A stretch of DNA of 64,000 nt. It comes from Myxococcales bacterium (GTDB lineage: Bacteria > Myxococcota_A > Polyangia > Polyangiales > DASUME01). Positions 1,752 to 22,791 of the stretch are shown piece after piece (the stretch's first letter is position 1; each line of letters opens with the position of its first letter). Where the stretch lies: assembly GCA_047601445.1 (NCBI GenBank), contig JASGJH010000001.1:2080001-2144000 (forward strand), in the 5' to 3' direction. Under the pieces are notes generated by a model. That model searched no databases. It saw only the letters and a program-made list of their open reading frames with translations, and was not told the origin of the DNA. The position numbers and the translations under genes are program-made.

Positions 1752-3450
1752 CTGGAGTTGGTTGCTGCTTTCGTGGGTCCTTGCAGCCTGTCCCGGGCTG
1801 CCGGACGGCCCGCGCTACGAGGGCGCAGGCAAGCCGGGGCCGCGGCGCGGGGGCACCTTGATGCTGTCCGAGCAGCAGCGAGTCCGCAGCCTGGATCCGC
1901 ACCTGGTCCACGACGTGATCTCGGGCGCCGTGATCGAGATGTTGTTCGACGGCCTGTATGAGTTCGACGCCCAGATGAAGCTCTCCCCGGACATCGCGGC
2001 GGAGCTGCCCGTGTACGCGAACGACGGCAAGGTGCTGCGCATCCGTTTGCGCCAGGGCGTACGTTTCCAAAACGGACGCGAGATCACCGCCGAGGACGTG
2101 GTGTGGTCCCTCGAGCGCATGCTTCATCCTCGAACGCACTCGCCCGGAGCCCTGTTCTATCGATTGATCGTGGGCTTCGAGGAGTACCGGGCCGGCAAGG
2201 CTTCGCACGTCGAAGGACTACGCGTACTCGAGCGCTACCAGTTCGAGATTCGGCTCTCGGAGGCGGACCAGACTTTCGCCCCTTTGTTGGCCATGCGCTT
2301 CGCCACCCCGGTACCGCGCGAGGAGGTGCTGAGCCGCGGCGCGGAGTTCGCGCGGCGTCCGGTGGGCAGCGGACCGTTTCGGCTTGCGAGCTGGGACCCG
2401 GGCGTGCGCTTGGTGCTGGAGCGAAACCCGCGGTACGGCGCGGGCTTGCCCCACGTGGACCGCGTGGTGGTCGAAGAAGCCATCGCGCTTGAGACGGCGT
2501 TCTTGCGCTTTCGCAACGCCGAAGTGGACGTGATGACGCGCGTCACGCCGGCCGACCGCGCGGTGCTCCAGGGCTCGCGCAAATGGCGCCCCTACTTCGA
2601 GGCATCGCCGAGCGTGGACATCTGGGGCCTGGTGATGAACTGCGAGCTGCCCCCCTTCGACAACGTGCACGTACGGCGCGCCGTGGCCTCTGCCATCGAC
2701 CGGGAACGCTGGGTCAAGGTGCGTAGCGGCAATCTGCGGGCTGCCGGTCAGATGGTGCCGCCACAGCTCATCGGATACGACCCAAAGCTGCCGCACCTTC
2801 AAGTTCTGGATTTGGCGAATGCCCATCGCGAAATGGCTTTGGCCGGGTTTCCCAACGGCTGGCCCGAGCCGGTGACCCTGTGGATCCCGGAAAGCGCCAC
2901 GGCGCGCATTTACGCCGAACTGGCCCAGGCCGACCTCGCTGCCATCGGCATCCGGGCGGAGATCAAAGGCACGACGTTTCCCGTGTTCCTCGAGTCCCAG
3001 GGCACGCCCAAGACCGTGCAGCTGTCGCTCTCGGGCTGGCAGATGGACTATCCTGATCCCTCGAACTTTCTGGGGCTCTTGCACTCGAAGTCACGCGGCG
3101 AGCGCTCGTCCATCAACCGCGCGTTCTACTCGAGCCCCACCCTCGATGGGTTGCTCGACCGAGCGCGCGTGGAGCCCGATCCGACGCAACGTGCACGGCT
3201 CTACCGAGACGCCAACGATCTGGTGGCGCACGACGCACCGTGGGCGTTCTTCGGCAACAACCTGGTGCCTCAAGCCTGGCAACCCTACGTGAAGAACTAT
3301 CGACCGCACGCGGTGTACTGGATGCCCGTGAACGAAGTGTGGCTGGATTTGCCGAAGCGCAAGCTGGAGCAGCTCGCCCAAGCGCTGTCGCCCCTACCCG
3401 GCGCCCGCGTGGAGATGCAGCGCGCCTTCGCGATTCGGGGACGACCATGA
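1729..3450 (+). CDS. ABC transporter substrate-binding lipoprotein, family 5 (DppA/OppA-like)
   Basis: Lipobox VLAAC, 'LRQGVRFQNG.EITAEDVVWSLER', 'PVGSGPF', 'W..DYPDP'. Exact start uncertain. Confidence 0.9.
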   Translation: MRSIPRASWSWLLLSWVLAACPGLPDGPRYEGAGKPGPRRGGTLMLSEQQRVRSLDPHLVHDVISGAVIEMLFDGLYEFDAQMKLSPDIAAELPVYANDGKVLRIRLRQGVRFQNGREITAEDVVWSLERMLHPRTHSPGALFYRLIVGFEEYRAGKASHVEGLRVLERYQFEIRLSEADQTFAPLLAMRFATPVPREEVLSRGAEFARRPVGSGPFRLASWDPGVRLVLERNPRYGAGLPHVDRVVVEEAIALETAFLRFRNAEVDVMTRVTPADRAVLQGSRKWRPYFEASPSVDIWGLVMNCELPPFDNVHVRRAVASAIDRERWVKVRSGNLRAAGQMVPPQLIGYDPKLPHLQVLDLANAHREMALAGFPNGWPEPVTLWIPESATARIYAELAQADLAAIGIRAEIKGTTFPVFLESQGTPKTVQLSLSGWQMDYPDPSNFLGLLHSKSRGERSSINRAFYSSPTLDGLLDRARVEPDPTQRARLYRDANDLVAHDAPWAFFGNNLVPQAWQPYVKNYRPHAVYWMPVNEVWLDLPKRKLEQLAQALSPLPGARVEMQRAFAIRGRP

Positions 3451-13068: not shown

Positions 13069-13142
13069 CGGATCCCCCTCAAACACGTCGAGCGAGCGAA
13101 GACGATAGCGCTCATGGGAATGCCCGAGCAACTGAGCAGGAG

Positions 13143-13174
13143 ATTCTTGACTTTTCCGATGGGTGAACTAGGGT
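13143..13174 (+). promoter_or_regulatory. Putative sigma70 promoter and Rrf2-type operator half-site for the sulfur operon
   Basis: TTGACT (13147-13152), 16 bp, TAGGGT (13169-13174). ATTCTTGACT resembles IscR/Rrf2-type half-sites. Confidence 0.4.
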
Positions 13175-13197
13175 TGTCCGGTTTTCGTGAGGTCTGC

Positions 13198-13656
13198 GTG
13201 AAGCTCTCCAGCCGGGGTCGCTACAGCGTCCGTGCCATGTTCGATATCGCGTTCCACGGCGAAGGCGCCGCGGCGCAGATCAAGGACATCGCCGAGCGCC
13301 AGGGCATCCCGCCGCGGTTCCTGGAGCAGATCTTCCAGGACCTGAGGCGAGCAGGCCTGGTCTCGAGCAAGCGCGGCCCCCGCGGCGGCTACCACCTCGC
13401 CCGAGCTGCCCGTGAGATTTCGGTGGGCGAAATCGTGCGCGCTGTGGAAGGGCCCCTGAGCCTGTGCGCCGGGGAGGAAGACGCAGCAGATAGCGGCGAC
13501 GTCGCGAGCATCGGGGTCACCGAGAACATGTTCCGCGACCTATCCGCGCGCGTGGCCGCCTGTTTCGACCAGGTCACGCTCGAGGACCTCTCGGACCAGG
13601 CCCAGCGCCAAGGTGTTCGCCGGGGCAATCCCGGCGGCTATGTCTACGTCATCTAG
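13198..13656 (+). CDS. cymR: Rrf2-family transcriptional regulator, CymR-like
   Basis: 'KLSSRGRYSVRAM', 'FLEQIFQDLRRAGLVSSKRGPRGGYHLA'. Lacks the IscR three-Cys cluster. C-terminal 'GGYVYVI'. Directly upstream of cysK. Confidence 0.75.
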   Translation: MKLSSRGRYSVRAMFDIAFHGEGAAAQIKDIAERQGIPPRFLEQIFQDLRRAGLVSSKRGPRGGYHLARAAREISVGEIVRAVEGPLSLCAGEEDAADSGDVASIGVTENMFRDLSARVAACFDQVTLEDLSDQAQRQGVRRGNPGGYVYVI

Positions 13657-13671
13657 TAGAGTTCGAACCCC

Positions 13672-14598
13672 ATGACAGCTCCGGTCGTCGACAACGTCCT
13701 CTCTCTCATCGGCAACACGCCCCTGGTGCGCCTGCGACGGGTCGTGCCGGAAGGCGCCGCGGCGGTGTGGGCGAAGTGTGAGCAGCTGAATCCCGGCGGA
13801 TCGGTCAAAGACCGCATCGCGCTTGCGATGATCGAAGCGGCGGAGCGCGACGGCAGACTCAAGCCCGGGGACACGGTGGTGGAGCCCACCAGCGGCAACA
13901 CCGGCATCGGTCTGGCCCTGGTGTGCGCGCGCAAGGGCTACAAGCTCGTGCTGACCATGCCCGAAAGCATGTCGCTCGAGCGCCGCGCGCTGCTGGAGGC
14001 CTATGGGGTCGAGATCGTGCTCACGGCGGCCGAGCGCGTGATGGAAGGGGCCATCGAGGCCGCCCAGGAAATCCTGGCCGAGCGCAAGGCCTTCATGCCG
14101 AGTCAGTTCGACAACCCCGAGAATCCGAACGCCCATCGCCGGCAAACGGCCCAGGAGATTTTGGCGGCGCTCGAGGGCGAACCGCTGCACGCGCTGGTGG
14201 CCGCGGTGGGCACGGGTGGAACCGTAAGCGGCGTGGGCGAGGAGCTCAAGGCCAAGCACCCGAGCCTCAAGGTGATCGCTGTGGAGCCCGAGGCGAGCCC
14301 CGTGCTGGCGGGCGGCGAGCCAGGTCCCACCAAGATTCAGGGCATCGGCGCAGGCTTCGTCCCGGGCAACTTCCATCACCAGGTGGTGGACGAGATCCGC
14401 CAGGTGGCCGATCGAGATGCCTACGAGATGAAGATCCGGCTAGCCAAGGAAGAAGGCCTGCTGGTGGGTATCAGCGCCGGCGCCAACGTGCGCGTGGCCG
14501 CGCAGCTGGCCAAGGAGTTGGGCCCCGGAAAAACGGTGGTCACGGTGCTGTGCGACACCGGTGAGCGCTACTTCAGCCTGGACGAGTACTTCAAGTGA
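13672..14598 (+). CDS. cysK: Cysteine synthase A (O-acetylserine sulfhydrylase)
   Basis: 'NPGGSVKDRIA' (PLP Lys), 'EPTSGNTG', 'GTGGT', 'KIQGIGAGF', 'DTGERY'. Confidence 0.92.
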   Translation: MTAPVVDNVLSLIGNTPLVRLRRVVPEGAAAVWAKCEQLNPGGSVKDRIALAMIEAAERDGRLKPGDTVVEPTSGNTGIGLALVCARKGYKLVLTMPESMSLERRALLEAYGVEIVLTAAERVMEGAIEAAQEILAERKAFMPSQFDNPENPNAHRRQTAQEILAALEGEPLHALVAAVGTGGTVSGVGEELKAKHPSLKVIAVEPEASPVLAGGEPGPTKIQGIGAGFVPGNFHHQVVDEIRQVADRDAYEMKIRLAKEEGLLVGISAGANVRVAAQLAKELGPGKTVVTVLCDTGERYFSLDEYFK

Positions 14599-15344
14599 AC
14601 GCAACGGCACAGACAGTCACGAGCGCCGCGGATGGACGCGGCGTGCTGGTGATCGGAGTCGGCGGACTCTCGTCACCCGCGCTGTCCGTGCTGGTGGAAA
14701 GCGGCGTGCGACGTCTGACGCTGATCGACGCGGACCGCGTGGACGAGACCAACTTGCAGCGCCAAACCCTGTTCTCCGAGGCCGACGTTGGCCGCCCCAA
14801 GGTGGAAGCCGCCGCGGAACGCCTGCGCTCGCTGAGCCCGGAGCCGCTGCAGCTGGAGCTCATCGAGGGCCGTTTTGCCCCCGAAAACGCCCGGGACGTC
14901 GTGGCGGGACATCGCTTGGTGCTCGAAGGAGCCGACAACTACGCCACCAAGTTCCTGGCGGCGGACACCGCCAAGCTCGAAGGACTATCGGTGGTACAGG
15001 CCGGCGCCGTACGACTCTCGGGGTGGGCCCTGGCGGCCCTGCCCGATGCAGGTCCCTGTCTGCGCTGCGTGTTCGAAGACATCCCACGCGGACAGCCCGA
15101 GACCTGCGCGGTCGCGGGCGTGCTCGGTCCGGTGGTGGGCGTGCTCGGTGCGCTCGAAGCGGCCCTCGCGGTTCAGCTCCTGCTCGGTCAGACTCGCGCC
15201 GCCGGCGTGCTCTGGAGCTACGATGCGCCGGCCGGGCGCCTGCGCAGGCGTCGTGTGTCCCCCAGGGCAGGCTGCGCGCTGTGCAGCGGCGAAATCACCA
15301 CGCTCGACCTCGAGCGCTACGACAGCAACCACTGCGCTGCCTAG
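14595..15344 (+). CDS. MoeB/ThiF-family (E1-like) adenylyltransferase lacking the N-terminal RYxR helix
   Basis: 'VLVIGVGGLS', 'DADRVDETNLQRQ', 'GRPKVEAA', 'GADN', Zn pairs CLRC/CALC, 'TCAVAGVLGP'. No rhodanese domain. Confidence 0.88.
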   Translation: MNATAQTVTSAADGRGVLVIGVGGLSSPALSVLVESGVRRLTLIDADRVDETNLQRQTLFSEADVGRPKVEAAAERLRSLSPEPLQLELIEGRFAPENARDVVAGHRLVLEGADNYATKFLAADTAKLEGLSVVQAGAVRLSGWALAALPDAGPCLRCVFEDIPRGQPETCAVAGVLGPVVGVLGALEAALAVQLLLGQTRAAGVLWSYDAPAGRLRRRRVSPRAGCALCSGEITTLDLERYDSNHCAA

Positions 15345-15376
15345 CGGCGCAAACACCTTCTGCAAAGGAGCCATCG

Positions 15377-15652
15377 ATGCCTATTACCGTTCGAATCCCA
15401 ACCCCCCTGCGCACCCTCACCGGCGGAGCCGACGAAGTCACCATCGAAGGCGGCAACGTCGGAGAGGTCATCGAGAACCTCGAAAAAAAGCACCCGGGCA
15501 TCAAGGAGCGTCTCTGCGACGAAAAGGGCAACGTACGCCGCTTCGTCAACGTCTACGCCAACGAAGAGGACATCCGCTTCCTCGACAACCTGGCGACGAC
15601 TCTCAAAGAGGGCGACTCGGTGAGCATCGTCCCCGCCATCGCGGGCGGCTGA
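15377..15652 (+). CDS. Ubiquitin-like sulfur carrier (CysO/MoaD/ThiS family)
   Basis: 91 aa, 'VRIPTPLR', 'RRFVNVYANEEDIRFL', C-terminal 'PAIAGG'. AAGGAG RBS. Confidence 0.92.
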   Translation: MPITVRIPTPLRTLTGGADEVTIEGGNVGEVIENLEKKHPGIKERLCDEKGNVRRFVNVYANEEDIRFLDNLATTLKEGDSVSIVPAIAGG

Positions 15653-15666
15653 AGGAAGAACTCGTC

Positions 15667-16041
15667 GTGCCGCTCAACGCTCGCCAGCGCACTCGCTATG
15701 CACGCCACCTGCTCCTGCCCGAAGTGGGCCTTGTGGGGCAGGAGCGTCTGGTGGAAGCGCGTTTGGGGCTGGGCGAGAGCGCCGATCCGCGCGCTGCCAA
15801 GGTGGCGCAGCTGTATCTCGAGCGGGCCGGCGTGAGCGTGGAGAGCGACGCTGCGCTGCGCGTTCGAGTGGCCGACACCGACTCGGTCCGCCGCCTGGCG
15901 GGAAGCCCCGCGCTCGAGCCAGCGGCAGCGGCACTAGCGGGCGCGCTCGGCGCCGTGGAAGCCATCAAAGAAGTGTTGCAGTTGGGAGCCAAAGGCGACG
16001 TGTCGCTGGCTCCGCTGTCTCTGGTACCGGAGGACGTGTGA
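15667..16041 (+). CDS. Mini MoeB-like protein (N-terminal RYxR helix plus dimerisation helices, no nucleotide-binding motif)
   Basis: GTG 15667. 'RYARHLLLPEVGLVGQERL', 'AQLYLERAGV', 'AGALGAVEAIKEVL'. Stop overlaps the next GTG. Confidence 0.7.
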   Translation: MPLNARQRTRYARHLLLPEVGLVGQERLVEARLGLGESADPRAAKVAQLYLERAGVSVESDAALRVRVADTDSVRRLAGSPALEPAAAALAGALGAVEAIKEVLQLGAKGDVSLAPLSLVPEDV

Positions 16042-16964
16042 GCCGCTTCAAGCGCATCGATTCGATCGTCGAGGCCGTGGGCAACACGCCGTTGGTGCGC
16101 CTGCGCAGCATCGAGCGCGACGCCCCCGGCGTGAAGATCTACCTCAAGCTCGAGTACACCAACCCGGGTGGCTCGGTGAAAGACCGCCCTGCCCTGCAGA
16201 TGCTCACCGATGCGATCAAGGACGGGCGCTTCACCAGGGACAAGATCCTCGTGGACGCCACCAGCGGCAACACGGGCGTCGCGCTCTCTTTATTCGGCGC
16301 TTGCCTCGGCTACCGCATCGCGCTGGTGATGCCTTCCAACGTCTCGCAAGCCCGCAAGAACATCACCCAGGCCTTCGGCACCCAGCTCATCTACAGCGAT
16401 CCCATGGAGGGCTCCGACGGCGCCATCCGCCTGGTGCGCAAGCTGGTGGCCGAGGAACCCGACAAGTACTTCTACTCGGACCAGTACTCGAACCCGAGCA
16501 ACCCCAGGGCACATTACCTCGGGACCGGTCGGGAGATCCTCGAGCAGGTGGGCGACGAGATCACCCACTTCGTGACCGGACTCGGCACCAGCGGCACCAT
16601 GATGGGGACCACCCGTCGTCTGCGGGAGCACTCGCGGAAGATCACCTGCATCGCCGCCGAGCCCGCGGAGGCGCTGCATGGCCTTGAGGGGCTCAAGCAC
16701 ATGCCGAGCTCCATCGTGCCGAACATTTACGACCCGAACCTCGCCGACGAGCTCTTGCCCGTGCCCACCGAGGGCGGCTGGGACATGGCGGACCGCCTCG
16801 CGCGCGAGGAAGGACTGCACGTGGGGCACTCGACCGGCGCCAACGTGTGGGCCGCGCTCACCGTGGCCAAGCGAGTCAAAGAAGGCTGCGTGGTGACCAT
16901 CGCCTGCGACCGCGGCGACCGCTACTTCGCTCCGATGCGCTGGGAGAAGCAGTATGAGTGGTGA
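16038..16964 (+). CDS. PLP-dependent cysteine synthase, CysM-like (probably sulfur-carrier dependent)
   Basis: 'NPGGSVKDRPA', 'DATSGNTG', 'GLGTSGT', 'GLEGLKHM'. Lies between the CysO-like and Mec-like genes. Confidence 0.85.
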   Translation: MSRFKRIDSIVEAVGNTPLVRLRSIERDAPGVKIYLKLEYTNPGGSVKDRPALQMLTDAIKDGRFTRDKILVDATSGNTGVALSLFGACLGYRIALVMPSNVSQARKNITQAFGTQLIYSDPMEGSDGAIRLVRKLVAEEPDKYFYSDQYSNPSNPRAHYLGTGREILEQVGDEITHFVTGLGTSGTMMGTTRRLREHSRKITCIAAEPAEALHGLEGLKHMPSSIVPNIYDPNLADELLPVPTEGGWDMADRLAREEGLHVGHSTGANVWAALTVAKRVKEGCVVTIACDRGDRYFAPMRWEKQYEW

Positions 16965-17451
16965 TCGTCCCTGGATCGCGGGTGACCTGGAGATCTCGCG
17001 CGAAGTGCTGGCTGAAATCGAGGCCCACGCGCTCGCGACCTATCCGAGCGAGTGTTGCGGCTTCGTGAGCGGGCCCCAGAGCCAGGCCAAGCTGCTCGAC
17101 GCCTACGTGCGCGAAGAGAACGAGGCCGACAAATATCACAAGCTCGACCCGGAGACGTTCCCGCGGACGTCACGGACGTACTTCAAGATCAACGAGCTCA
17201 GGGCCGCCAAGGCCTTCGACGCCGGCGACAAGAACGGCCGCCCGATCAAGGTCATCTATCATTCGCACTGTGACGCCGGCGCTTACTTCTCGCAGGAAGA
17301 CGCCGCCACGTTCGCCTCCGACAAACAGCTGATGTGGCCCTGCGCCTTCATCGTGGTGAGCGTGCAGAACGGCCAGCTCGCCGAGCGAAAGCTGTGGATC
17401 CACGTGCCCGGTACCAACGATTTCCGCGAATCCTCCCTGACCGTCCGATGA
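16954..17451 (+). CDS. JAMM/Mov34 metallopeptidase (Mec-like, CysO-cysteine peptidase)
   Basis: 'YPSECCG' and JAMM motif 'YHSHCDAGAYFSQED'. Confidence 0.88.
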   Translation: MSGDRPWIAGDLEISREVLAEIEAHALATYPSECCGFVSGPQSQAKLLDAYVREENEADKYHKLDPETFPRTSRTYFKINELRAAKAFDAGDKNGRPIKVIYHSHCDAGAYFSQEDAATFASDKQLMWPCAFIVVSVQNGQLAERKLWIHVPGTNDFRESSLTVR

Positions 17452-19205
17452 ACGACATCGAAGAGCTTAGTTGCGATCTCCTGATCATCGGCGGCGGTGC
17501 GGCCGGCTGCGTCGCCGCCGTGGAGGCGCGTGAGAAGGCCCCGGACCTCGACGTCCTCTTGGTCGAGAAGGCCCACATCTACCGCAGTGGCTGTCTGGCC
17601 GCCGGCATCAGCGCCATCAACGCGTACCTGACGCCCGGAGAGACCGCCGAATCGTTCCTGCGCTACACCATCCGCGACACCCACGGCATCGTGCGCGACG
17701 ATCTGGTGCTGAGCATGGCGCGTGAGCTCAACGCGCAGTCCCACCGCGTGGAGAAGTGGGGCCTGCCCATCCCGCGCGACGAGAATGGCCACCCGCTCAA
17801 GCGCGGCCGTGCCTCGATCAAGATCCTGGGTGAGCGCATCAAGCCCATCATCGGCAAGGCCACCGAGGCCAGCGGCGCGCGCATCATGAACCGCGTGAAC
17901 ATCACCGGCCTGGCCACGCATCGTGGCCGCGTGATCGGCGCCTTCGGATTCAACATCCGCACCGGGAAGTTCATCTCCATCCGCGCCAAGGCGACCCTGC
18001 TCTGCACGGGGGGCACCGCGGGCCTGTATCGCCCCAACAACCCGGGCATGGCCTCTCACCGCATGTGGTACTCGCCCTTCAACACGGGCGCCGGCCTCGC
18101 GATGGGCATCCGCAGCGGCGCGGAGATGACGAGCTTCGAGTTCCGCTTCATCCCTCTGCGCATCAAGGACGCAATCGCTCCGACCGGCGAGATCGCACAG
18201 TGGCTCGGCGCCAAGCAGATCAACGCGCGCGGCGAGGCCTACCTGGACAAGTACTACCAGCACCTCGGCGGCTCTCGCATGACCACCCAGGATCGCCTCT
18301 ACGCGACGCTGCAAGAGAAGATGGCCGGTCGTGGACCTTGCTATCTGGACATCAGCAACGTGGACCCGCGCAAGCTGGAGGGCACCACGCGCTCGTACCT
18401 CTCGATGGCACCGCCGGCTGCGATGCTGCTGCAGGACGAGATGTACTACGGGCGGGGCGGCGGCTCGATGGCGCCGGTGGAAATCACGGGCAGCGAACCG
18501 CACGTCGTCGGCGGCCACGGTCTCTCGGGCTACTGGGTCGACGTGTCGCGCAAGACGACCCTGCCTGGTCTGTGGGCGGCGGGTGACGTGGCCGGTGGCT
18601 CGCCCAAGAAGTACGCGTCGGGAGCCTGGGCCGAAGGCGTGCTGGCGATTCGCGACATGATCGACGACGTGCGCACGCGGAAGTCTGTGGAGCTCGACGA
18701 GGAGCAGATCCTCAAGGAGCGTGACCGCGTGTTCGCGCCGTTCGAGGACAAGCCCGGCACTTCACCGCGTGAGCTGGAGGAGCGCCTGCAAAAGGTGATG
18801 GACGAGTACGCCGGCGGCATCAGCCAGATGTACATGTACTCGGAGGGCGAGCTGAAAATCGCCGAGATTCACCTCAAGCGTCTCGAGCAGGAGTTCAACG
18901 CCATCACCGCGGGTAGCTTGCACGAGCTGTTGCATGCTCACGAGTTGATGGATCGCGTGACCGTGGCGCAGACGCTGGTAGCTCACATGCTGCATCGCCA
19001 GGAGACACGCTGGCACTGCTATCAGGAGCGTGTGGACTATCCGCAGCGCGACGACGCTCGTTGGAGCGTATTCGTAAACTCGGTTCGCAAGGGCGACCGT
19101 ATCGAGATGGTGGAACGGCCGGTAGAGCGCGCGAATGTCGAAGTCGTGCTGCCAGAGCTCGCCGATGGCGCCATCATTCGTCACAGCACGAGTTCTTCGG
19201 AGTAG
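17448..19205 (+). CDS. aprA: Adenylylsulfate (APS/PAPS) reductase alpha subunit-like flavoprotein
   Basis: FAD motif 'IIGGGAAG', 'RSGCLAAGISAINAY', 'WYSPFNTG.G.AM....GAEMT.FE.RF', 'EPHVVGGH', 'LQKVMDEYAGG', 'ETRW'. Followed by an AprB-like gene. Confidence 0.8.
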   Translation: MNDIEELSCDLLIIGGGAAGCVAAVEAREKAPDLDVLLVEKAHIYRSGCLAAGISAINAYLTPGETAESFLRYTIRDTHGIVRDDLVLSMARELNAQSHRVEKWGLPIPRDENGHPLKRGRASIKILGERIKPIIGKATEASGARIMNRVNITGLATHRGRVIGAFGFNIRTGKFISIRAKATLLCTGGTAGLYRPNNPGMASHRMWYSPFNTGAGLAMGIRSGAEMTSFEFRFIPLRIKDAIAPTGEIAQWLGAKQINARGEAYLDKYYQHLGGSRMTTQDRLYATLQEKMAGRGPCYLDISNVDPRKLEGTTRSYLSMAPPAAMLLQDEMYYGRGGGSMAPVEITGSEPHVVGGHGLSGYWVDVSRKTTLPGLWAAGDVAGGSPKKYASGAWAEGVLAIRDMIDDVRTRKSVELDEEQILKERDRVFAPFEDKPGTSPRELEERLQKVMDEYAGGISQMYMYSEGELKIAEIHLKRLEQEFNAITAGSLHELLHAHELMDRVTVAQTLVAHMLHRQETRWHCYQERVDYPQRDDARWSVFVNSVRKGDRIEMVERPVERANVEVVLPELADGAIIRHSTSSSE

Positions 19206-19244
19206 TGGTTCGCGCGCCGCGTCGCGTGAACGCAGGAGGAGCAG

Positions 19245-19586
19245 ATGGGTATCTTCGTAGACGAGAACGTGTGCAACGGCTGCGGCATCGCCGAGGAGCC
19301 CATGTGCGTGCGCGACTGTCCCGGCGACCTGATGATCCTCAAAGAGAATCGTAAGGCCATCATCCGGGACAACCGCGACTGCTGGGACTGCGCCGCGTGC
19401 GTGAAAGTGTGTCCGACTCAGGCCATCGCCATGCAGCTGCCGAGCTCGGTGATCGTGCGAGGCGTCAAGCTCAAGGGCCGCGCCATCAAGCACAAGACGA
19501 CTTGGAAGCTCAAGCTACGCGACGGCACGGAGCGCGCTTACGAGACGCCCAGCACGGGCAACGCTCCGTTCAACCCGAGCCTGTAG
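19245..19586 (+). CDS. aprB: APS reductase beta subunit-like 2x[4Fe-4S] ferredoxin
   Basis: 'CNGC......CVRDCPGDLM', 'CWDCAACVKVCP', C-terminal 'W.....DG'. AGGAG RBS. Confidence 0.8.
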   Translation: MGIFVDENVCNGCGIAEEPMCVRDCPGDLMILKENRKAIIRDNRDCWDCAACVKVCPTQAIAMQLPSSVIVRGVKLKGRAIKHKTTWKLKLRDGTERAYETPSTGNAPFNPSL

Positions 19587-19726: not shown

Positions 19727-20113
19727 TCAGCCCTCGGAGGCCGCCGCAGCAGACACGTGCGAGCGGTTGCTCTCGCGGAGGCGGGCCTTCTTGCCCTCGA
19801 GACCGCGCATGTAGTAGAGGCGCGAGCGGCGAACGCGGCCGCGGAAGCCGATTTCGATCTTCTCGATGCGAGGCGAGTTGATGGGGAAGATACGCTCCAC
19901 GCCAACGCCGTAGGACACCTTGCGCACCGCGAAGGTGGCGCCGACGCTGCCCTTGGACTTGCGAATGACGGTGCCCTGGAAGACCTGAACGCGGTCCTTC
20001 TCGCCTTCGCTGATGCGGAAGTGGATCTTCACCGTGTCACCGACGCGGAAATCCGGGAGGGTACGAACCTGTGCCTGCTCGATGGCGGCAATCTGAGGAA
20101 TGGTGCTGGCCAT
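19727..20113 (-). CDS. rplS: 50S ribosomal protein L19
   Basis: '[10 protein letters not shown]', 'RVQVFQG', '[15 protein letters not shown]', '[10 protein letters not shown]'. Confidence 0.97.
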
Positions 20114-20305
20114 GGCCTGGTTTCTCCGTCCGACACACGCGCGAGTCGCGGCGTGAGTGATCAAGGTGACGCGCGCGGGTCTACGGCGCGAGCGACATTA
20201 GGGCCGCCTTCTTGACATGCCCGATGGGGGGCGTCAATCGCCCGCCGGAACTTGGCGAGTTTCCAGGCTCTTGAGCGGTTCCAAGAGCCAAAACTCCGGC
20301 GTTTC

Positions 20306-21613
20306 TCAGGATGCGCCCAGATCTCCGAACAGGCGGTCGAGAATAATTGCGCAAGCAGCGCGCACGGACAGGTGGTTGTAGGTGCCGGGGCGAATCGGGG
20401 GAAGCGCCAGATCCGCCTGCTCCAGGACTTCCTGGGCCAACCCGTGGCCAGTCCCGAACAGGAGCAGCCAGGGGCGGTTCTCGCGGGCCATCTCGGCCCG
20501 CACTTCGCGGAAGGGGGTCGCAGCCACCCCACCCGGCAAGCGGGCTGCCGTGACCACCAGGCGCGGCCGCTGGCCGTGTGCGGCCTCGATGGCGGCAATG
20601 GTGGCGGCAATCGAGTCGATGGGCCGGGCCAGGGACAGGGCGACCCCGCGCTCTGGTACGCGCCGCTTGCCGCTGCCCTCCACCCAGTGCTCGAGGATCT
20701 TGTCCACCAGCGCCCGCTGGGCCTCGATGGGCGTGATCACGTAGTAGCCCGCGAGACCGAACGAACGGCTCGAGCGCGAGATGTCGTGCACGTCGAGGTT
20801 CGTGACGGCGGTGGTCACGATGTTGCCCTCGCGGTCCTTCACCGGATAGTGCACCAGGCCCACGTAGATGGGCGCGCGCTCGGGGGCCCCGCGTTCCCGC
20901 TCGAGCTCGCTCAGCAGCGTGCGGTCCTCGGCACTCAGTGAGGCCTGCCCGAAGAGATCCGGGCGCTGGGTCCGCGTGCGCCGCAGCACCTCCTTGCGGC
21001 GGTAGCGAGCCACGGCGCCGTGATCGCCCGAGAGCAGCACTTCGGGCACACGCTGTTCACGAAACTCGGGCGGACGCGTGTACTGCGGATACTCCAGCAT
21101 GCCGTGGGAATGGCTCTCCTCGTGGGTGCTCTCCATGTTCCCGAGCACCCCGGGCAACAGCCGCGCCGTCGCCTCGATGACCGCCATGGCCGCGACCTCG
21201 CCGCCCGTCATCACGAAGTCGCCGAGTGAAATCTGTTCGTCCATCGCCTCGCGGACACGCTCGTCCACGCCCTCGTAGCGGCCGCACACGAGCGCGATGC
21301 CAGGGTAGGTGGCGAGCCGACGCGCCGTGGCCTGATCGAAGGGCTTTCCCTGCGGAGTGAGCAACACGCGGTGCAAGCGTCCCGTGGTCTCGCGGGACTC
21401 CAGGGCCTCGAGGATGGGGCCCGGCATCATCACCATGCCGCTGCCGCCGCCGTAGGGCGCGTCATCGACGGACTTGTGCTTGTTCTTGGTGAAGTCCCGG
21501 ATGTTGGTGCACTCGACGCGAATAAGGCCGTTCTCGTGCGCCTTGGCGACCAGGCCCTTCTGCAGGAAAGAGGCAAACAGCTCGGGGAAGATCGTGATGA
21601 CTTCGAAGCGCAT
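20306..21613 (-). CDS. trmD: tRNA (guanine-N1)-methyltransferase fused to a C-terminal second SPOUT methyltransferase domain
   Basis: 'DDAPYGGGSGM', 'CGRYEGVDER', 'SLGDFVMTGGE', 'LEYPQYTRP'. Then 'LVHYPV...TTAVTNLDVHDISR...FGTGHGL...YNHLSVR'. Confidence 0.93.
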   Translation of the reverse strand: MRFEVITIFPELFASFLQKGLVAKAHENGLIRVECTNIRDFTKNKHKSVDDAPYGGGSGMVMMPGPILEALESRETTGRLHRVLLTPQGKPFDQATARRLATYPGIALVCGRYEGVDERVREAMDEQISLGDFVMTGGEVAAMAVIEATARLLPGVLGNMESTHEESHSHGMLEYPQYTRPPEFREQRVPEVLLSGDHGAVARYRRKEVLRRTRTQRPDLFGQASLSAEDRTLLSELERERGAPERAPIYVGLVHYPVKDREGNIVTTAVTNLDVHDISRSSRSFGLAGYYVITPIEAQRALVDKILEHWVEGSGKRRVPERGVALSLARPIDSIAATIAAIEAAHGQRPRLVVTAARLPGGVAATPFREVRAEMARENRPWLLLFGTGHGLAQEVLEQADLALPPIRPGTYNHLSVRAACAIILDRLFGDLGAS

Positions 21614-22161
21614 CAGTCGGCCTTGGTGTGCAGCACGTCGAGCTCATCGAGGTGATCGACGACCACGAATCCCGCCTCGACGTCGATCTCCACGAGATAG
21701 CGCTCGGTGTCGGGCACCTCCCAAGCCCCGCCCTCGCCCTTCACCAGCAGGCAGGCGATGCTCGGGTACTGCACGATGTCCTCCACGCGCCCGAACGCCG
21801 CGCCCTGCGCGTCGCGGGCTTCGAGGCCCACGAGATCGACGAGGTACACCTCGCCCTCTTCGGGTTCGGGAAGCGCGGAGCGAGGCACGCAAACCAAGCT
21901 GCCCCGCAGGGCCTCGGACGTGTTGCGGTCCGTCACGCCTTCGAGCGCCAGGATGAGCTGATCGGCGTGGCCCCGGGCACCGCGCACGGCGTAGCTACGC
22001 GTCGTGCCGTCCGGCTGCTTGAGCACGATCTGCTCGAGTTCGCGCAAGAGCTCGCTTTCCGGATTGAACGGCTTGAGCGAGAGCTCTCCGCGCAGTCCGT
22101 GGGCTCGCACCACGGCGGCGAGCTCGACCAGCTCGTCTTGGCCGACAGGCGCACGGGCCAC
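21613..22161 (-). CDS. rimM: Ribosome maturation factor RimM
   Basis: 'HGLRGE', 'R...EALRG', 'EGEVYLVDLVGL'. Canonical position in the operon. Confidence 0.9.
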   Translation of the reverse strand: MARAPVGQDELVELAAVVRAHGLRGELSLKPFNPESELLRELEQIVLKQPDGTTRSYAVRGARGHADQLILALEGVTDRNTSEALRGSLVCVPRSALPEPEEGEVYLVDLVGLEARDAQGAAFGRVEDIVQYPSIACLLVKGEGGAWEVPDTERYLVEIDVEAGFVVVDHLDELDVLHTKAD

Positions 22162-22172
22162 TTGAACCCGCC

Positions 22173-22412
22173 TTATTCGAGGATCTCGAGCACCGCGCGG
22201 CGCTGACGCCGGGCGCTCGCTGCAGCCAACAAGGTGCGAATGGCGCGGGCCGTGCGACCTTCGCGACCGATCACCTTGCCCAGGTCGCTCTTGGCGACCG
22301 TCAGCTCCACCACGATGGTGTTGTCACCGTCGATGGCTTCGACTTCGACCGCGTCCGGGTCATCCACGAGAGAGCGTGCGATGTACCCGATGAGCTCTTC
22401 GATTTGCTCCAT
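22173..22412 (-). CDS. khpA: KH-domain RNA-binding protein
   Basis: 'DLGKVIGREGRTARAIRTLL'. Located between rpsP and rimM. Confidence 0.9.
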   Translation of the reverse strand: MEQIEELIGYIARSLVDDPDAVEVEAIDGDNTIVVELTVAKSDLGKVIGREGRTARAIRTLLAAASARRQRRAVLEILE

Positions 22413-22434
22413 CAGAAGCCTCTTCGCGGGCGCC

Positions 22435-22683
22435 TCAGGCGCTCGCGGCCTTCTTCTTCTCGCGCACGATGTGGCTCACGCGCTCGGAAAGCTGCGCGCC
22501 GACGCCAACCCAGTAGTCGAGACGGTCGAACTGGATGTTCGCGGAAGCATCGGGCTCGTGCGGGTCGTAGGTGCCCAGCTGCTCGATGAAGCGGCCGTCA
22601 CGGCAGCTCGCGTTGTCGGTGGCGACGATGTGATAGAACGGGCGCTGCTTGGTGCCACGACGGGCCAAACGGACGATGACCAT
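22435..22683 (-). CDS. rpsP: 30S ribosomal protein S16
   Basis: 'MVIVRLARRG...PFYHIVA.D....RDGRFIE.LG.YDP...W...GAQ'. Confidence 0.96.
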   Translation of the reverse strand: MVIVRLARRGTKQRPFYHIVATDNASCRDGRFIEQLGTYDPHEPDASANIQFDRLDYWVGVGAQLSERVSHIVREKKKAASA

Positions 22684-22791
22684 GCTGCTCTCTTCTCGCT
22701 GGCGCGCCCGAAGCGCGCTTTGACTTGGGTGTGCGGCCACGTGCCCGGACCGCTCGCACGCTCGAGCGACGGGGCTCGAACGAGGGGCGGG

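Follow-up and report, generated by a model that had tools for sequence, protein, structure and literature searches.

A putative two-gene, heterodimeric E1-like enzyme in a cysteine operon of Myxococcota

Results

An operon with two complementary E1-like genes

The window analysed here is a stretch of 64,000 nucleotides (nt) from the genome of a Myxococcales bacterium (contig JASGJH010000001.1, positions 2,080,001 to 2,144,000). Its plus strand carries a cysteine operon in the order Rrf2 regulator, cysK, E1L, Gly-Gly ubiquitin-like carrier (Ubl), mini, cysM-like gene, JAB, aprA and aprB. E1L encodes an active-type adenylyltransferase of the MoeB/ThiF family, and mini a degenerate MoeB paralogue of 124 amino acids (aa). 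The pair is real, conserved and under selection, and comparative evidence together with a predicted complex lends good support to the view that its products form a heterodimeric E1-like enzyme. The genes are listed below (E, expect value; PLP, pyridoxal phosphate).

13117..13656, plus strand: Rrf2-family regulator (CymR/IscR-like), start codon approximate; Pfam Rrf2 E 5e-37, TIGR00738 above cut-off.
13672..14598, plus strand: cysK, cysteine synthase A; TIGR01139 407 bits against a cut-off of 351; stop overlaps the E1L start.
14595..15344, plus strand: E1L, active-type MoeB/ThiF adenylyltransferase, 249 aa; Pfam ThiF model positions 23-236 of 238; neither N-terminal arginine-finger segment nor rhodanese domain.
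15377..15652, plus strand: ubiquitin-like sulfur carrier (CysO/SAMP1/MoaD type), 91 aa, Gly-Gly end; Pfam ThiS E 1.4e-16, NCBIfam SAMP1 and moaD_arch above cut-off.
15667..16041, plus strand: mini, 124-aa degenerate MoeB paralogue, proposed inactive subunit; N-terminal helices with Arg13, strand 1, helix 3 with Tyr50, helix 7.
16038..16964, plus strand: cysM-like PLP cysteine synthase; best match TIGR01138, 342 bits, under the cut-off of 394; start overlaps the mini stop.
16954..17451, plus strand: JAB metallopeptidase (Mec+-like); Pfam Prok-JAB E 1e-16.
17448..19205, plus strand: aprA-like adenylyl-sulfate reductase alpha subunit; NF005331 738 bits against a cut-off of 557.
19245..19586, plus strand: aprB-like ferredoxin subunit; best match TIGR02060, under cut-off.

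E1L is a bare ThiF domain with a short crossover loop, and it scored above the Pfam ThiF cut-off. It contains the Gly loop (G21/G23), D45, the NLQRQ motif (R56), K69, D114, two CxxC pairs (C155/C158 and C227/C230) and the loop cysteine C171. The sequence-only reading of this locus had described a MoeB homologue with catalytic and zinc motifs but no N-terminal finger segment; the residues were confirmed, and the match to ThiF begins only at model position 23. A hidden upstream start was ruled out: E1L and cysK overlap, start on stop, at GTGA, and the frame is closed by a stop 10 codons before the E1L start.

GTDB genomes were scanned with an alignment anchored on E1L, and therefore without bias towards mini. 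At least 587 relatives were found among 599 stretches, and the 80-locus counts refer to the best 80. Titles of most of the matches listed read Myxococcota, Polyangiales, Polyangiaceae, Sandaracinaceae or metagenome-assembled Deltaproteobacteria. In none of the 80 loci was the finger segment present upstream of the Gly loop; had E1L orthologues retained the RYxR helix, the earlier reading would have been refuted. The cysK stop and the Gly loop are separated by 25 codons or fewer in 71 of the 74 loci with cysK. In contrast to this loss, G21, G23, D45, R56, K69, D114, C155, C158 and C227 are invariant in 99 of 99 E1L proteins, C171 is present in 97 and C230 in 94.

Mini had been read as carrying the segment missing from E1L, together with two named helices, and as having lost the catalytic and zinc motifs. 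All of these segments were recovered. Mini matched the N-terminus of the NCBIfam MoeB models (best E 2.8e-8), and its profile aligned to residues 2-56 of E. coli ThiF (E 1.2e-7) and, weakly, to residues 198-219. It is 33% like the N-terminus of the MoeZ of the same genome. No Pfam family was matched, ThiF included, and the Gly loop, NLxRQ, Asp and CxxC motifs are missing from the mini alignment. From the alignment to ThiF and the numbering in the accessible text of PMC13139853, Arg13 of mini corresponds to MoeB Arg14 and ThiF Arg11. This finger Arg is invariant in 91 of 91 minis; the helix-3 Tyr is found in 89, the first Arg in 80 and the helix-7 Glu in 51. In a set of 295 short homologues from databases, 292 have the finger Arg and three have a gap there, a count open to search bias since the finder profiles contain the Arg; the neighbouring Arg10 is found in 224. 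Protein searches for mini returned 130 matches (first alignment), and 404 representatives were collected at E 1e-10 or better, some of which may be full-length MoeB. A 268-aa fusion of mini and JAB (P0112) was also seen, in a cluster of 6 members.

The losses of the two genes are reciprocal, as the sequence-only reading had it. In 76 intact MoeB/MoeZ proteins both the helix-3 Tyr and the helix-7 Glu are invariant (76/76 each); Arg counts in this set are circular, because it was chosen on those Arg. The Tyr, kept by nearly all minis, occurs in 0 of 99 E1L, and the Glu in 2 of 99.

Conservation and selection

The mini gene is conserved at the same position across Myxococcota. It adjoins E1L in 72 of the 80 best loci; in five others the locus is cut by a contig end (one showing the mini start), and in one mini lies on another contig (E 2.3e-4). 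Co-occurrence had been put forward as a check on the earlier reading, and it came out in its favour: 73 of the 75 assessable loci have mini and two do not. Among 41 related genomes, 28 had an E1L-type best match, and mini was found in 27 of these, the remaining one being cut by a contig end. In 26 of the 27 it follows the carrier gene (two were read from DNA only), and in one (L021) it lies on the next contig. The 13 other genomes gave only full-length MoeB/MoeZ matches with either query, so that neither E1L nor mini was found with these queries. Of 20 regions hand-picked from a search of 301 genomes of the phylum, 18 were E1L-plus-mini loci, other orders and classes included, and two were full-length MoeZ. 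All taxon-named short degenerate matches from three protein searches belonged to Myxococcota or Deltaproteobacteria. Atlas clusters in which Binatota is the commonest phylum provide a lead only on a range beyond Myxococcota.

Of 99 loci, 64 have the complete order cysK-E1L-Ubl-mini-cysM-JAB. Mini remains next to E1L where no cysM match was detected (10 loci with E1L-Ubl-mini-JAB) or where the carrier is missing (4 loci), within the limits set by thresholds and locus ends.

Selection was estimated from 19 disjoint pairs, picked on carrier similarity among 73 complete loci, as the ratio of non-synonymous to synonymous substitution rates (dN/dS); the Nei-Gojobori values are rough for such GC-rich genes. 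Pooled ratios were 0.29 for mini, 0.17 for E1L, 0.10 for JAB and for the carrier, 0.09 for cysK and 0.06 for cysM, and for mini dN was lower than dS in 19 of 19 pairs, which shows purifying selection. GC content at third codon positions is 0.77 in mini, versus 0.81-0.91 in its neighbours. A pseudogene or a sequencing artefact was ruled out by the cross-genome conservation and the dN/dS, in line with the earlier opinion that mini is no pseudogene, which phylum-wide conservation and the invariant Arg also bear out.

Probable origin by duplication

The earlier description of a "split" E1 was right in that two genes complement each other, and needs correction as to their origin. Simple fission of one gene was ruled out: strand 1, helix 3 and helix 7 are present in both genes, which therefore probably arose by duplication with reciprocal loss. 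In other orders and classes the partners are 130-190 aa long and retain more MoeB sequence, one of them with CxxC, which points to duplication and stepwise decay; judged by sequence, these longer minis of other orders probably form a degeneration series. When the mini and E1L profiles were compared directly, no significant match resulted (17 columns in helix 7, with E 0.29 and a probability of 0.2%).

In a tree of 56 rows, 23 of 24 intact MoeB/MoeZ proteins lay behind a branch with support 100/97, apart from all 32 E1L. Near the base of E1L stood P0118, an intact 247-aa MoeB with the finger and E1L-like motifs, and a candidate for the pre-duplication type. As to the number of E1L origins, the tree, which has no outgroup root, needs two changes, and a single origin was recovered in 38% of bootstrap trees.

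Predicted structures

The AlphaFold2 model of mini is compact and confident, with a predicted local distance difference test score (pLDDT) of 93.1 and a predicted template-modelling score of 0.85. Among 48,161 chains its best structural matches were MoeB (Z 9.5, root-mean-square deviation (rmsd) 2.5, 114 residues aligned), Uba4 (Z 9.1, rmsd 2.7, 119 aligned) and NAE1 (Z 8.4, rmsd 2.5, 107 aligned), whereas the best match outside the E1 family reached Z 6.3. The model was also compared with BilD (8TYZ; Z 6.4, rmsd 3.1, 111 aligned). With Foldseek, ThiF topped the list, but nothing was found at E 0.001 or better. The profile match to ThiF and the identity of these top three structures place the descent of mini in the E1 adenylation fold.

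A prediction of the complex had been suggested along with the earlier reading. Modelled with adenosine triphosphate (ATP) and zinc, E1L and mini scored 0.92, versus 0.06 for the best of three controls. The mark thereby passed is reached by 116 of 157 solved pairs and by 2 of 215 mismatched pairs, a calibration roughly applicable here. Runs agreed in at least 92% of contacts, and the pLDDT of the partners was at least 90. In the predicted interface, residues 179-190 of E1L meet residues 85-97 of mini, and helix 7 packs on helix 7; mini 9-14, the stretch with the finger, and E1L 51-58 also take part, and the model gives no distance from the Arg to ATP. The model supports a candidate binding mode in the geometry of the MoeB dimer. 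At the modelled interface, mini is better conserved than elsewhere in its sequence (0.50 versus 0.37), a difference reached by 5 of 123 shifted masks.

Discussion

Proposed enzyme and pathway

We propose, with a probability of roughly 75%, that E1L and mini form a duplication-derived 1:1 heterodimer with a single active site. The active-plus-inactive pair of the sequence-only reading is in this respect supported by the reciprocal loss and by the modelled MoeB-type geometry. An ancestral gene for a homodimeric MoeB/ThiF enzyme would have been duplicated within the sulfur-assimilation operon, and the copies would have shed complementary parts. E1L would have retained the ATP site, the Mg-binding Asp, the zinc site and the crossover-loop Cys, and shed the N-terminal helices, the helix-3 Tyr and the helix-7 Glu, the last two being invariant in intact MoeB. 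Mini would have retained the dimer-forming half, made up of helices 3 and 7 and of the N-terminal helices that carry the trans-acting Arg13, and lost everything else. The two proteins would bind each other in the cell, mini substituting for the second MoeB protomer by covering the dimer face of E1L, with Arg13 beside its ATP loop, and activity would call for both subunits.

By analogy with the CysO/CysM/Mec+ pathway, the E1L-mini enzyme would adenylate the Gly-Gly end of the carrier. A sulfur donor outside E1L would then make the carrier thiocarboxylate, presumably either a persulfide or sulfide produced by way of aprAB and sulfite reductase. CysM would use the thiocarboxylated carrier to form carrier-bound cysteine, and the JAB peptidase would free the cysteine, which is the step of Mec+ in the CysO pathway.

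A benefit of the arrangement may be that it prevents cross-pairing with MoeZ; entrenchment by neutral change following the duplication would fit equally. A stronger form of the proposal, which we hold to be slightly better than an even chance, is that bacterial primary metabolism includes an obligate heterodimeric E1 encoded by two genes, present across Myxococcota and perhaps in neighbouring phyla, whose inactive subunit shrank stepwise to about 100 residues and without which the enzyme does not work. If true, this obligate pair would have repeated, independently and by degrees, the step from homodimer to heterodimer that is assumed for eukaryotic E1s.

Alternative explanations

Several points weigh against the heterodimer or its strict form. 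Arginine fingers are reported to be non-essential in MoeB and ThiF, and TcdA has none, according to the accessible text of PMC13139853; there the R59A change of Tcd1, the inactive partner of yeast Tcd2, costs 26% of activity, though the stability of Tcd2 needs Tcd1. Because of these fingers, mini may matter mostly as a scaffold, and an Arg-to-Ala mutant may therefore retain activity without refuting the heterodimer. Mini is more likely to be required for its scaffolding, with a tuning effect on catalysis, than as an indispensable source of the Arg, and we are rather doubtful that R13A would abolish activity. Mini is the fastest-evolving of the six operon genes compared. The score of the complex may reflect the solved MoeB and ThiF dimers known to the predictor, and it shows likeness rather than binding or specificity; of E1L-mini, the E1L homodimer, mini-MoeZ and E1L-MoeZ, the modelling covered the first. 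The E1L side of the interface is not more conserved than the rest (0.61 versus 0.57, reached by 58 of 239 shifts). The locus counts are not independent, as the genomes are related. Finally, two loci, L173 (3501-4205) and L187 (2932-3648; unpublished genome), run E1L-carrier-cysM without mini, and a search with the profile alignment did not find mini elsewhere in these two genomes.

The exceptions bear most directly on the possibility that E1L acts alone as a finger-less homodimer, like TcdA, with mini as an optional partner that boosts it or regulates it in a dominant-negative way. Such autonomy, which the non-essential fingers of MoeB and ThiF would also allow (PMC13139853, accessible text), seems unlikely to us. 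The E1L of the two mini-less operons do retain the Gly loop, the NLxRQ motif and the zinc ligands, but mini is kept in the other 73 assessable operons, its Arg is invariant and the helix-3 Tyr is gone from every E1L. In the tree, L187 is nested among mini-bearing E1L, which suggests a secondary loss of mini, and its E1L deviates from DNxATKF, a conserved motif. Within the Polyangiales group L173 branches off first, and its E1L has Arg for the usual Lys, like intact MoeB.

Both mini-less genomes hold a full MoeZ, and the genome of the window has, away from the operon, a full-length MoeZ-like gene, which we take to be rhodanese-fused, with its own finger and an N-terminal extension, plus a weaker third ThiF match. 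Mini could thus partner MoeZ as an inhibitor or adaptor, or MoeZ could complete E1L, the gene order reflecting shared regulation only. The resemblance of mini to the MoeZ N-terminus speaks for such a link, and sulfur might reach the carrier through it, E1L having no rhodanese. However, a MoeZ with its own finger has no need of an outside one, in 13 of the 41 relatives the queries met full-length MoeB/MoeZ without E1L or mini, and the losses of mini are complementary to E1L specifically; we regard this explanation as improbable. Still less credence is due to the idea that mini assists CysM, JAB or the carrier as an accessory protein, or that it is a remnant in slow decay, retained because its translation is coupled to that of cysM. 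The mini stop does overlap the cysM start, a GGAGG motif lies at the mini end, mini is fused to JAB in P0112 and its dN/dS is the highest of the operon. Yet dN stays below dS in every pair, mini is kept in loci with no cysM or no carrier, and its conserved positions fall on a MoeB-type dimer face of a confidently predicted compact fold.

Comparison with known systems

In MoeB/ThiF homodimers the N-terminus of one protomer completes the site of its partner (accessible parts of PMC12596934 and PMC12355090). The E. coli MoeB-MoaD and ThiF-ThiS structures (PDB 1JW9, 1ZUD, 1ZFN) share with the present pair the fold, the Gly loop, the Arg/Lys/Asp set, the zinc site and the Gly-Gly carrier. Unlike E. 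coli MoeB and ThiF, which are one-gene homodimers with two sites, finger and core are here on two genes, and the finger chain is about half a domain.

The earlier reading saw a bacterial parallel to eukaryotic E1s, and this held in part. In NAE1-UBA3 and SAE1-SAE2 the inactive and active adenylation subunits are separate and form one active site (PMC12355090, accessible text); here too, inactive- and active-type domains are on separate chains, encoded by two genes with reciprocal motif loss. The parallel fails in that there are no catalytic-cysteine half-domains, no ubiquitin-fold domain and no E2 in the operon (no E2 family was matched by the nine operon proteins in Pfam and NCBIfam scans), and that the pathway is one of sulfur carriage, not of protein conjugation. 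The inactive subunit is also far smaller, about 100-190 aa versus 529 for NAE1. Convergence rather than ancestry is the more likely source of the likeness. Nor is a bacterial inactive domain new as such: in BilD, of the antiviral BilABCD ubiquitination system, inactive and active adenylation domains are fused and form one site, with Arg9 from the inactive domain (PMC10557695, accessible text). BilD is a single chain with a CYS domain that works with an E2 in defence, whereas the present enzyme has two genes and belongs to primary sulfur metabolism.

The closest functional analogue of E1L-mini is the Tcd1-Tcd2 pair of S. cerevisiae, ThiF-family paralogues born of a duplication, in which the inactive member, Tcd1, stabilises its active partner Tcd2 and provides an arginine finger that is not essential (PMC13139853, accessible text). 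It differs in being eukaryotic, in acting on tRNA and in having two full-length subunits; loss of the N-terminus from the active subunit is not described in the accessible text of that source.

As to the pathway, the type 4c operons of Iyer et al. 2006 bring together a carrier, an E1-like enzyme, a JAB protein and a cysteine synthase (PMC1779556), and MoeZR sulfurates CysO in mycobacteria (PMC3227635), both as given in the accessible text. The Gly-Gly carrier, JAB peptidase and PLP cysteine synthase of the CysO/CysM/Mec+ pathway stand in one operon here. In contrast, the mycobacterial E1 is a single intact chain fused to a rhodanese, whereas E1L has neither rhodanese nor finger and has a partner gene, and its operon, unlike the mycobacterial type, adjoins cysK and aprAB.

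By analogy, E1L-mini probably works like NAE1-UBA3, SAE1-SAE2, BilD and Tcd1-Tcd2, but it belongs to none of them. No description of a two-gene bacterial E1 was found in the literature searched, most subscription papers and supplements being outside that search; the precedents are the fused BilD and the eukaryotic pairs. If a bacterial pair on two genes has living intermediates (partners of about 190, 150, 125 and 100 aa), small soluble proteins would suffice to test how and why a symmetric enzyme turns into an active-plus-inactive heterodimer, and what an inactive adenylation domain minimally does. It would also assign a function to hundreds of proteins of one family that are currently called hypothetical.

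Variant loci and neighbouring genes

In L094, L100 and L104, E1L is extended at its C-terminus by about 75 aa; this extension bears a Cys-Pro motif, in our estimation looks TusA/SirA-like, and could be the sulfur donor in those lineages. In L108 (reverse strand, 2084-3169) E1L is in frame with the carrier, an E1-carrier fusion with mini directly behind. Extra DNA of 0.7-1.3 kilobases separates E1L from the carrier gene in L059 (about 2170-2870), L105 and L107, with a Cys-rich open frame in L059. The carrier of the window stops at Gly-Gly, and 1-4 extra residues follow it in the carriers of L006, L010, L011, L014, L015 and L017-L023; these JAB would have to trim before carrier activation. The genome of the window has three carriers of the ThiS/MoaD family.

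The aprA/aprB-like pair (17448-19586) closes the cysteine operon in what is apparently an assimilatory setting; the genome contains a single PF01507 gene and two genes with NIR/SIR domains. On the minus strand, a cluster at 19727-22740, which from its translations we take to be ribosomal (resembling rpsP, a KH protein, rimM, trmD and rplS), converges on the operon, and its trmD-like gene, of 435 aa, has a long C-terminal extension.

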